Origin: Nisaea sp.
GTDB lineage: Bacteria > Pseudomonadota > Alphaproteobacteria > Thalassobaculales > Thalassobaculaceae
Direction: 5' to 3'
NCBI RefSeq assembly: GCF_965216895.1
Contig: NZ_OZ244205.1
Coordinates: 34,791-98,790, forward strand
DNA length: 64,000 nt
The notes under the pieces are model-generated. The model saw nothing but the letters and a program-made list of their open reading frames with translations, did not search any database and was not told the DNA's origin. Of the stretch, positions 48,952-51,926 are shown piece after piece; the stretch's first letter is position 1, and the number at the start of each line of letters is the position of its first letter. Made by a program: the position numbers and the translations under genes.

Positions 48952-49366
48952 GGAAAAAGCTCAGGCAAGAAAGGGACGAAAACCGGCGGGCGGACACCGC
49001 GTAGTGCGGCCGCCTATTCGGGCATTCGTGGCGGTAGGGCCTGGAGCTTGATTTCCATGAAGCTGTCTTTACGCTTCCGGCGAGGGGTGGTCAACCCGGA
49101 CCGCCAGGTGGTTTGGAGGGCACGGTGAGCCGGTGGCGAAGCCGCGCGGCAATCCGGAGGTGGCCGGCCCATGCCGGCCATGAGGGCAGTTCCGACAGGC
49201 ATCTCGATCGGCGTACCGAATGTCCGTGGCGGCGGTCCCGCAGCTTGCCGCTGGTCTTTGCTTGTCTTTCCTTTCCGGCGCGCCTGTGATGTATCTTTCG
49301 GCGAGTACCGGCCAGCGCCTGAGTACCCCCGCAGCCCGTCAATCTCGTCCGGACCGGAGTTCGCCC

Positions 49367-49978
49367 ATGACACTGGAAACCGCGCTCGCCTTCGCGCTCG
49401 GTATGGTCATCCTGACCCTTACGCCCGGACCCACGATGCTGACGACCATCGCGAAATCCCTCGCAAGCGGGTTCTGGAGCGGTTTTCAGTACAATATCGG
49501 GGTCTGCATCGGGGACCTGATCTTCCTGATGCTGGCCATCTTCGGTCTGCAGATCGTCGCCGAACTGCTCGGCGACGTCTTCTTCGTCGTAAAATGGGTG
49601 GGGGCGGGCTATCTGCTCTGGCTCGGGACGAAACTCTGGCTGGCGAAGCCGGTTCCGCTCGAGGCGCGGCCGGTCGGTGCGAAGGGGCTGCTGCGAGAGG
49701 TCACGGCCGGGGTTCTGGTCACGCTCGGGAACCCAAAGGTGATCCTGTTCTATGGAGCCCTGCTGCCGACCTTCGTAAAGCTCGACTCGCTGGTCGCAGG
49801 CGATATCGCAATCCTCGCCGGCATTGTCGTGGTCGCAATCGTTGTGGTGAACAACTTCTACGGCCTGATGGCGGCGCGGGCCCGTCGTGTGTTTCGCTCA
49901 GCCCGCGCCGTTCAGGTGCTGAATCGCAGCGCCGGCGGCGTAATGATCGGTACGGGCGTCTTCATTGCCACGCGCTGA
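49367..49978 (+). CDS. LysE/RhtB-family translocator
   Basis: LTPGP, G...GD, KWVGAGYL.WLG, LGNPK.ILFY. Confidence 0.92.
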   Translation: MTLETALAFALGMVILTLTPGPTMLTTIAKSLASGFWSGFQYNIGVCIGDLIFLMLAIFGLQIVAELLGDVFFVVKWVGAGYLLWLGTKLWLAKPVPLEARPVGAKGLLREVTAGVLVTLGNPKVILFYGALLPTFVKLDSLVAGDIAILAGIVVVAIVVVNNFYGLMAARARRVFRSARAVQVLNRSAGGVMIGTGVFIATR

Positions 49979-51427
49979 CCGGCCGGGCGGCGGCGGTGTG
50001 ATCGTCCGGGACGGCGGAAGCAGAACGGAAGCCGCAAGACCGCCACCCGCCAGATTGGTGATCTCCATCGCACCGCCATGCAGTTCAGCAAGGATCCTGC
50101 AGATCGGCAGGCCGAGGCCCGAGCCATGGAAGCCCCGGTCCTCGAATTCGCGTGATCCTGAAAACGGAATCAGCAGACTTTCGGCCTGTTCCTCCGGAAT
50201 CCCGGGACCGGGATCCGTCACGGTAAAGCAGGCGGTGCCGCTGGGTTTGGCTTCGTAGGACATCTCTACGGTTCCGCCTTCGGGGGCGTGTCGCAGGGCG
50301 TTCTCGAGCAGTTTGCCGAGCAGGGAAACCATGAGGTCGCCGTCGACATGCAGTGACGGATTCGTATCGTCCCGTGACACCCGCAGGCGCACATCGCGAT
50401 TGCGCGGCAGAGACGCGGCGTTCGTCTCGGCGCGACTCAGAATGGACGCGACCGGCGTCGGTGCGAAGGCCGGCTCGATTTCGCCGCCCTCGAGCCGGGT
50501 AAGTTCAAGCACGTTCTCGATCAGAAACAGGAGATGGCGGGCGGCCTGATTGATGTTGCCCGCGTAGCTCAGATAGCGCTGGATCGTGTCCGGTCCGAAA
50601 CGCCGACTGCTGACGATCTCGGAGAACCCGACGATGGAGTTCAATGGCGTCCGGATCTCGTCGATCACGCGAGCGACGAAATCGGATTTCGACTGATGCG
50701 CCCGTTCTGCCTTGTCGCGCAGCCGGGTCAGGTCGGCTTCGGTTCTCGTCTGTCGGTCCTGCAGCGCATTGTAGGCCGCCACCACCTGACCGATCTGGTC
50801 CTCGCTCTCCCAGTCGATCGGGATCCGGGCGCCACTGTCGCGCTGGATGTGAATGGCGTTCAGCATCATGTCGAGCGGCTGGCCGACGGTCGCCCGGAGC
50901 ACGAGATGCGCCGCGACTGCGGCAGAAGCGATGAGAGCCAAACCGAGCAGGGAGATATAGACCAGGGAATTGAGGAGGCTCGCGATTGCGGGCCCGTCGC
51001 TCATGCTGACGATGAGCGTTCCGACTCGCTGGTAGCTGTCCTCGCCCATATGGTTGATTGCGATACGTCCGACCAGCGGGTCCGCCTGATCCGGGATCGG
51101 GCCATACTTGTTCAGCACGGAGCCGTGCCGGTCGAGCACGGCAATGGACGCGACATCCCGGTCCGCGATGGTCTGCGCGACCAGAAGGCCGATCCGGTCG
51201 TCGCGCCGGTTGGCGACAGCTTCTCCCAGAAGCAGGGATTGCCGGGCCATCAGCGTATCGAGCTTGCTGGCGAGATCCGCCTTCGACTCGCGGTAGGTGA
51301 CGGTGCCGTAAATGGCGATCAGGACCGCGAAGACGACAACAATGATCGGCACGAACCGGGTCAGATAGCGCGAGCTGATCGATTTCAGGATGGAGTGGTT
51401 CCCGGCGGTGGCGGGCGGGTTAGTCAT
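49898..51427 (-). CDS. Membrane HAMP histidine-kinase homologue with His-to-Asp in the H box (putative pseudokinase)
   Basis: Two TM segments, HAMP, KSDFVARVIDEIRTPLNSIVGFSEI, ENALRH, DPGPGI, GSGLGL. Confidence 0.85.
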   Translation of the reverse strand: MTNPPATAGNHSILKSISSRYLTRFVPIIVVVFAVLIAIYGTVTYRESKADLASKLDTLMARQSLLLGEAVANRRDDRIGLLVAQTIADRDVASIAVLDRHGSVLNKYGPIPDQADPLVGRIAINHMGEDSYQRVGTLIVSMSDGPAIASLLNSLVYISLLGLALIASAAVAAHLVLRATVGQPLDMMLNAIHIQRDSGARIPIDWESEDQIGQVVAAYNALQDRQTRTEADLTRLRDKAERAHQSKSDFVARVIDEIRTPLNSIVGFSEIVSSRRFGPDTIQRYLSYAGNINQAARHLLFLIENVLELTRLEGGEIEPAFAPTPVASILSRAETNAASLPRNRDVRLRVSRDDTNPSLHVDGDLMVSLLGKLLENALRHAPEGGTVEMSYEAKPSGTACFTVTDPGPGIPEEQAESLLIPFSGSREFEDRGFHGSGLGLPICRILAELHGGAMEITNLAGGGLAASVLLPPSRTITPPPPGRSARGNEDARTDHYAAGAAIQHLNGAG

Positions 51428-51926
51428 TCAGGACCGCCGCCGGGATCTTTTCGATCACCGGCCAGGTCCGGTCGGCGATCGCGATGTTCTTGTCGAGCTC
51501 GGCCTTCCAGAGAGTCTGGGTCGCGCGGTCCAGCTGCAGATAGAGCTTTCCTTCGACCAGCGCGAAGACTTCCGGGTCGCCGTCGAACTTCTGGCCGACT
51601 GCGACGCCATAGGCGCAGAAGCCCCCATAGCTCGGCACATAGAGGCGCGGTTCCAGGAGGAACTCCTCACGCCGCGCCGCCGAGGCGAAGTGATAGGTCG
51701 CGCCTTCGTAGGTTGCCGTGAAGGAGGCGTCTCCGCGCTCCGCCTGGCCGGCGGTGAAATAGGCAACGGGATCGTAGCCCCTGAGTGCGACACCGTTCTT
51801 GTCCAGATTGCGCTCCGGAGAGGCGGCGAGAACCTGGCTGCCCCAGAGGAGCACAGCGACGAGAGCGGCAAGCGCCGGCGCCCAGAGAACGGCTGGTTGA
51901 AGGGCTTTGCTGTTGTTGCACTTCAT
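51420..51926 (-). CDS. Exported YHS-domain protein
   Basis: Signal peptide; GYDPVAYF, Y.FAS, P.YGG.CAYG, GKLYL. Confidence 0.88.
   Translation of the reverse strand: MKCNNSKALQPAVLWAPALAALVAVLLWGSQVLAASPERNLDKNGVALRGYDPVAYFTAGQAERGDASFTATYEGATYHFASAARREEFLLEPRLYVPSYGGFCAYGVAVGQKFDGDPEVFALVEGKLYLQLDRATQTLWKAELDKNIAIADRTWPVIEKIPAAVLND

Follow-up and report, generated by a model that had tools for sequence, protein, structure and literature searches.

A probable pseudo-histidine kinase of Nisaea with an acidic residue at the phospho-acceptor position and an exported YHS-domain protein as its neighbor

Gene organization and domain architecture

The window analyzed here is a 64,000-nt stretch of forward-strand DNA from Nisaea sp. 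(assembly GCF_965216895.1, contig NZ_OZ244205.1, positions 34,791-98,790). Nisaea is a marine genus of the Thalassobaculaceae, assigned by GTDB to the order Thalassobaculales and named under the Rhodospirillales in this analysis. The minus strand of the window encodes a HisKA-type sensor kinase homolog in which the phospho-acceptor histidine is replaced by aspartate (Asp256), immediately preceded by the gene for an exported YHS-domain protein (Table 1). Sequence comparisons suggest that this homolog is a genus-specific pseudo-histidine kinase that probably still works, through contact with a response regulator, either as a phosphatase or as a docking protein. The gene pair was compared across 10 Nisaea genomes and the metagenomic clusters P0002-P0010. 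An alignment of 27 kinase sequences (11 from Nisaea and 16 from elsewhere, namely eight YHS-linked relatives, P0012, and seven generic PleC-like kinases), a maximum-likelihood tree, and pairwise ratios of nonsynonymous to synonymous substitution rates (dN/dS) between Nisaea sequences, for which whole-gene dS ranged from 0.55 to 1.3, were used to trace the history of the kinase homolog.

Both signature domains of a histidine kinase were recognized above the Pfam gathering cut-offs (HisKA, residues 246-315, 45.2 bits; HATPase_c, residues 363-472, 71.8 bits), and the partial NCBIfam matches to the PhoR, PdhS, and DivJ kinases all fell far below theirs. The AlphaFold2 model (mean predicted local distance difference test [pLDDT] score, 79.6) places a first transmembrane segment ahead of a periplasmic alpha/beta domain (~45-145) built of helices followed by four strands, and then a second transmembrane segment, a HAMP-like linker, the DHp helices (211-313), the CA domain, and a disordered tail. 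Foldseek matched the model to histidine kinase structures, with the WalK-YycH model 9a5d on top and DivL and RetS among the matches to the cytoplasmic core, while the best PDB match by sequence was DivL (4q20, 84.6 bits). No close paralog is encoded in the genome, the nearest being only 29% identical.

The upstream gene product belongs to NCBIfam family NF041384 (YHS_seleno_dom, "YHS domain-containing (seleno)protein"), with a score of 133.2 bits (cut-off, 70); its match to the Pfam YHS model was weak. Its single invariant cysteine in 11 homologs, Cys104, lies in the motif GG[FY]CAYG (G102-F-C104) and aligns with what is listed for the family as a GxU selenocysteine motif (PMC13188914). An AlphaFold2 model of this protein was too low in confidence (pLDDT, 54) for a fold search, and a PDB sequence search returned generic YHS-repeat matches only. 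The 8-nt overlap between the two genes, noted in the original prediction and recovered here, is the same in each of the Nisaea loci checked (L001, L004, and L005), suggesting translational coupling.

The opposite end of the kinase homolog overlaps the 3′ end of a convergent LysE-family exporter gene by 81 nt, and the tail is therefore shaped by the other strand. Residues 476-509 evolve with a dN/dS of ~1 at low dS, and pLDDT drops to ~30 from residue 480. Because the His-bearing ortholog described below (P0012) stops before LysE, the tail seems to have originated within Nisaea by read-through.

Table 1. Features of the YHS-kinase locus, with positions counted from the first nucleotide of the window
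Feature	Position	Strand	Basis or remark
Exported YHS-domain protein, 168 aa, N-terminal signal peptide	51420..51926	-	NCBIfam NF041384
Overlap of YHS stop codon and kinase-homolog start codon, 8 nt, ATGACTAA	51420..51427	-	Sequence
His-less HisKA sensor kinase homolog, 509 aa	49898..51427	-	Open reading frame call and Pfam
Periplasmic sensor domain, residues ~45-150, PDC/PAS-like shape	50978..51295	-	Secondary structure of AlphaFold2 model
DHp (HisKA) domain, residues 236-320	50468..50722	-	Lowest dN/dS of all regions
Codon GAC, Asp256, phospho-acceptor position; E257-I-R-T260 directly after	50660..50662	-	Sequence
CA (HATPase_c) domain, residues ~355-475	50003..50365	-	Pfam and alignment
LysE-family exporter gene, convergent	49220..49978	+	Overlaps kinase tail residues ~483-509 plus stop
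Overlap of 3′ ends, kinase homolog and LysE-family exporter gene, 81 nt	49898..49978	both	Open reading frame calls

Conservation of the acidic site and selection on the kinase fold

The H box of the kinase homolog reads SKSDFVARVI-D-EIRTPLNSIVGFSEI, with the GAC codon of Asp256 at 50662..50660. This residue had been reported from the sequence alone, together with drift of the neighboring H-box residues and a lysine at the first asparagine of the N box; the open reading frame and the sequence confirm the first claim, and the substitutions listed below bear out the other two. It had also been cautioned that GAC is a single base from CAC and might reflect a sequencing error, and orthologs were to be inspected for histidine. 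None was found in the 10 Nisaea genomes, in which the gene is full length and without stop codons, or in the metagenomic clusters: the genomes carry either Asp (GAC, seven) or Glu (GAG, three), and the clusters agree with them. Four Logan assemblies are also identical over the Asp256 site, but they derive from runs of one sample that may itself be the source of the genome assembly and so do not count as independent support. Asp256 is thus a real residue, and neither a sequencing error nor the mark of a dying gene.

Asp and Glu have replaced one another repeatedly. In the maximum-likelihood tree, two of the Glu sequences are basal in two subclades and the third is nested; the three do not form a clade, so at least three Asp/Glu switches are needed. 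No other residue occupies the site anywhere in the Nisaea tree, and all 16 aligned sequences from outside the genus have His. Among 1.84 billion cluster representatives, only one Asp/Glu cluster was found, and it corresponds to Nisaea. The canonical acceptor is therefore gone and, as far as the sequences sampled indicate, only carboxylates are allowed at this position in the genus. Two unrelated architectures among the best 150 matches also lack His, both of them PleC-like kinases: P0201 (1079 aa) has Asn and P0256 (979 aa) has Gln in its place. Within the genome itself, 31 HisKA-type H boxes were identified, and only two lack His, that of the Asp256 protein and that of a true DivL ortholog with Tyr (G000:C1:3907485-3909983, plus strand, outside the window; an 832-aa open frame with EFIANVS-Y-ELRTPLN). 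The genome thus encodes two independent His-less HisKA proteins.

The ancestral state can be read from P0012, the nearest sequence outside Nisaea (496 aa, 41-42% identity), which has a normal ANMS-H-ELRTPLN box. On its contig, genes for DDAH-like, CoA-transferase III, and HMGL-like proteins lie to one side of the YHS-kinase pair, and those for LysE, MatE, and a phosphodiesterase follow on the other; this gene order is that of the window, making P0012 a positional ortholog. The stem branch leading from P0012 to the Nisaea clade is long (1.86 substitutions per site). Changes fixed along it include L251V, N253R, M254V, S255I, and H256D/E in helix 1; S295A, G296A, Q297R, N304E, and D305N in helix 2; and N372K in the N box. 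In addition, 10 of the 11 Nisaea sequences have His244 where the outgroups have Asn or Ser, the remaining one (L004) combining Asn244 with Glu256.

Loss of the acceptor was not followed by loss of constraint. Whole-gene dN/dS between Nisaea pairs is 0.08-0.21, and by region it is lowest in the DHp domain (0.02-0.08), compared to 0.06-0.25 for the CA domain and 0.08-0.22 for the periplasmic domain. The DHp domain, where constraint is strongest, is invariant at 62 of 85 columns across the 11 Nisaea sequences. All 27 aligned sequences share residues E257, R259, T260, and P261, which contain the E/DxxT/N transmitter-phosphatase motif. Beyond the motif, helix 1 (PLNSIVGFSEIV) does not vary within Nisaea and differs little from that of the His-bearing relatives, such that the response-regulator docking surface looks preserved.

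The nucleotide-binding region shows a different pattern. In this genome, the N box has Lys372 for the first Asn and Arg380 for Lys but keeps the Mg-binding Asn376, and the G1 (D405-P-G-P-G, 405-409) and G2 (G435-S-G-L-G-L, 435-440) boxes are intact. The original prediction that G1 and G2 are intact consequently holds for the subclade of this species but not for its sister subclade, in which G1 reads DSGNT, DSGKM, DTGKP, DTGKT, or NTGKT, the F box has become IPL, G2 reads GTGLSL or GIRLSL, and the N-box Lys is replaced by His or Ser. The CA domain is under purifying selection even where these boxes decay. ATP binding therefore appears to be dispensable in part of the Nisaea clade, and ATP-dependent kinase activity would not be the function that is maintained. 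Both the concentration of selection on the DHp domain and the decay of the ATP lid in one subclade fit a functional pseudokinase, lending support to the earlier proposal of a pseudokinase, phosphatase, or scaffold.

Linkage to the YHS gene and the search for a partner regulator

The YHS gene immediately precedes the kinase homolog in each of the 10 Nisaea genomes, so the linkage on which the original prediction depended is conserved, and it extends to His-bearing kinases. At least 10 loci were found in which a YHS gene adjoins the gene of a His-bearing relative (25-42% identity) that shares the sensor architecture, including the periplasmic domain. The two form an operon in L012/L021, L026, L027, L058, and L105, the last being the locus of the His-bearing ortholog, where a 15-nt gap takes the place of the overlap. 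In L011, L016, L033, L047, and L052, the genes are convergent, with stop codons ~10-100 bp apart; adjacency without an operon is unusual for a functional pair. The presence of the linkage in His-bearing relatives indicates that the pairing predates the loss of His.

The NF041384 family is widespread (>580 loci), and its neighborhoods are heterogeneous: across 80 loci, kinases were found at 17, along with AraC, extracytoplasmic function sigma factor, LysR, TetR, and PNPOx-like genes, so that no signal can be deduced from gene context. One minus-strand cluster from another genome of the same class (G037; L021, 5725-14845) comprises genes for a single-domain receiver, an SBP56-like protein of the methanethiol-oxidase family, a MauG-like di-heme cytochrome c peroxidase, the YHS protein, the His-bearing kinase, and a methyl-accepting chemotaxis protein with a C-terminal hemerythrin domain, which hints that the YHS-kinase pair may operate in a copper, sulfur, metal, or redox context. 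The Nisaea genome also carries two YHS-family paralogs outside the window with 38-39% identity (G000:C1:1401130-1401570, minus strand, and 2720572-2720910, plus strand). The first of these is located upstream of genes for a 3-hydroxyisobutyrate-dehydrogenase-like protein, a PAS_5 protein, and a 128-aa single-domain response regulator.

A cognate response regulator had been reported as missing from the neighborhood, and the wider search agrees: no receiver domain is encoded in the 64-kb window, the nearest lying ~120 kb away, and the syntenic locus of the His-bearing ortholog likewise yielded none, as did 10 of the 11 related loci. Orphan status is typical in this genome, which encodes a DivK/PleD-like pair (4359202-4360368) and ~16 PleC-like kinases, most of them orphans, whose helix-1 sequences are nearly the same. 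One single-domain receiver of ~160 aa (G000:C1:3361536-3362018, plus strand) has Glu in place of the phospho-Asp (VDVLLT-E-LH) and a GPDRR-rich C-terminal tail. It was considered as a dead receiver that had co-evolved with the kinase homolog and was rejected, because this Glu is conserved in all six of the other sampled genera that yielded an ortholog, so its origin does not coincide with the loss of His. The Glu is present in all 16 orthologs found (L109-L124), from Nisaea and these six genera of the family, and the protein looks like a member of a natural phosphomimetic or pseudo-receiver family. Four small runs that were guessed to be RNA and that carry the same species label contained nothing from the locus and are uninformative on its expression.

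Candidate functions and comparison with known systems

Purifying selection on a histidine kinase fold that has no usable phospho-acceptor fits the pseudo-histidine kinases, a kind for which, to our knowledge, only a few cases have been studied (DivL, PsmA, and RetS-like proteins). For the Nisaea protein, a signal-regulated phosphatase is the reading tentatively preferred here, at somewhat less than even confidence. Under this model, the ancestor in Nisaea would have been an ordinary orphan PleC-like membrane kinase, already paired with the YHS protein, in which an acidic residue came to replace the phospho-acceptor His, after which position 256 toggled between Asp and Glu. The protein could then no longer autophosphorylate at the canonical site but would have retained the constrained docking helix for response regulators, including the E-x-x-T transmitter-phosphatase motif. 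It would act in the "off" direction only, binding and dephosphorylating a response regulator encoded elsewhere, with the carboxylate at 256 and Thr260 positioning or activating the hydrolytic water. The periplasmic domain and the YHS protein would set the level of activity, and the signal might be a metal or redox cue sensed via the invariant Cys of the YHS protein.

There is precedent for the proposed chemistry. In unrelated response-regulator phosphatases, an acidic residue and an amide are located one helical turn apart (CheZ, DxxxQ; CheX, ExxN; NarX, DxxxQ), and [D/E]256-x-x-x-T260 could by analogy constitute a kinase-independent phosphatase site. In HK853, the phospho-acceptor His acts with Thr264 to activate the water for the phosphatase reaction, and the H260A substitution diminishes phosphatase activity (PMC5727384). 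A carboxylate is a plausible substitute for a His of this type.

Several points weigh against a phosphatase. An acidic side chain beside the phospho-aspartate could repel the substrate instead of aiding catalysis, and the Arg residues fixed beside the site (N253R and Q297R) might serve only to neutralize the carboxylate. In the alignment, DivL keeps the same E-x-x-T motif, and DivL is described as a pseudokinase that acts by binding DivK~P and not by catalysis; E-x-x-T alone is thus no proof of phosphatase activity. The partner response regulator is not nameable from sequence, since none is encoded within ~120 kb or consistently near the His-bearing relatives. Furthermore, because the YHS gene is convergent and not co-transcribed in five relatives, it is from adjacency that a physical partnership between the YHS protein and the kinase homolog is proposed.

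A protein acting as a scaffold or allosteric adaptor in the manner of DivL, without catalysis, is less likely than a signal-controlled phosphatase, though a real possibility. Such a protein would bind a regulator in one state (e.g., DivK), or dock onto or heterodimerize with another kinase, and relay the periplasmic or YHS signal without phosphoryl chemistry, the Asp or Glu possibly serving as a permanent mimic of phospho-His. DivL-CckA and RetS-GacS are precedents for docking or heterodimerization on another kinase, and the CA domain of DivL is needed for function, in line with the selection on the CA domain in Nisaea where these boxes have decayed. DivL is also the best PDB sequence match, and the presence in the genome of the DivK/PleD pair, the true DivL, and the orphan PleC-like kinases speaks for this reading as well. 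The interchangeability of Asp and Glu fits charge or mimicry better than a precise catalytic geometry; taken together with the new Arg253 and Arg297, it is compatible with a charge role and with catalysis alike. However, no specific partner is supported, the Tyr-bearing DivL encoded elsewhere means that the Asp256 protein is not the DivL ortholog, and the invariant Thr260 would have no obvious role in a scaffold, although DivL keeps its Thr too.

A more speculative and improbable proposal is that the acidic residue was selected as a permanent stand-in for the chemistry of His. It would act either as a general base, giving a constitutively phosphatase-competent and pH-ungated [D/E]-x-x-x-T site comparable to the D-x-x-x-Q of CheZ and NarX, or as a phospho-His mimic locking the DHp domain in a "phosphorylated" state. 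Either way, a metal or redox signal from the periplasm would reach an orphan network of the DivK/CtrA type by way of the exported Cys- or selenocysteine-type YHS protein, without a kinase step.

It is very unlikely that the protein is still a kinase, using an acceptor elsewhere (e.g., His244) or trans-phosphorylating the His of a paralog in a heterodimer by means of its intact CA domain. Asn376, G1, and G2 are intact in the subclade of this genome, and His244 is new in nearly all of the Nisaea sequences, but His244 lies 12 residues (~18 Å) further up the helix than the canonical site, the sister subclade has degenerate ATP boxes, and no close paralog exists as a partner. As a general substitute acceptor, His244 was rejected, since the combination of Asn244 and Glu256 in L004 means that there is no universal substitute His. 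Finally, a neutral relic drifting to loss after one point mutation, or a sequencing or assembly error, which the single-base distance from CAC and the lack of an adjacent partner regulator might have suggested, is refuted by the comparative data, namely full-length frames in 10 of 10 species at a dS of ~1 or more in the most divergent pairs, low dN/dS overall and above all in the DHp domain, strict retention of Asp or Glu, and the identical Logan assemblies of the single sample.

This case is unusually clean for testing how dead kinases signal: the His-bearing positional ortholog makes the ancestral state available, only Asp or Glu replaces the His, the docking helix and its phosphatase motif are preserved, and the two sister subclades that differ in ATP-site decay provide a natural contrast. 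For the exported YHS (seleno)protein family NF041384, providing accessory input to a kinase would be a first plausible function. Nisaea denitrificans DSM 18348 is held in culture collections, making these predictions directly testable.

By the standards of the HisKA family, the HisKA and HATPase_c domains are present in the Nisaea protein, whereas the phospho-acceptor His is absent and no cognate regulator is adjacent or identifiable. His-less histidine kinases as such are already known. New here are the restriction of the replacement to acidic residues, with repeated switching between Asp and Glu, the intact phosphatase motif in a transmembrane sensor, the availability of a His-bearing positional ortholog, and the conserved exported YHS partner. 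One close parallel, DivL, has cytoplasmic PAS domains and no known periplasmic sensor, and it is widespread in the Alphaproteobacteria. In contrast, the N-terminal part of the Nisaea protein is a periplasmic domain between two transmembrane segments and not PAS, its partner is exported, and it occurs in one genus only, placing it outside the DivL group. Both are alphaproteobacterial HisKA proteins of the PleC/DivJ type that lack His, retain E-L-R-T-P-L after the site, and are orphans with no adjacent regulator; however, DivL of Caulobacter crescentus, a His-less pseudo-histidine kinase, has Tyr at the site (PMC4211667; PDB 4q20) where the Nisaea protein has Asp or Glu, and the Nisaea genome encodes a separate DivL ortholog.

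PsmA of Streptomyces venezuelae is a hybrid histidine pseudokinase whose site carries E, D, Q, V, or Y and whose E/DxxT/N motif is lost (PMC12963549). It resembles the Nisaea protein in being a His-less HisKA-type protein with an acidic residue (Glu in S. venezuelae and Asp in S. coelicolor), in its conservation within one lineage, and in its degenerate ATP motifs, but it is a cytoplasmic hybrid that binds DivIVA and its site varies freely (PMC12963549), whereas only Asp or Glu is found in Nisaea and the motif is invariant. HK853 and EnvZ have a DHp helix of the same kind, in which E/D-x-x-T/N adjoins the phospho-site and Thr and the residue at the His position place the hydrolytic water (PMC5727384); they differ in having His and switching between kinase and phosphatase modes, while the Nisaea protein could be a phosphatase only. 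Lastly, WalK-YycH/YycI, LuxQ-LuxP, and TorS-TorT are membrane kinases that receive input from an exported protein encoded by a neighboring gene, an arrangement proposed here from adjacency, with the difference that the Nisaea partner belongs to the uncharacterized YHS (seleno)protein family NF041384.

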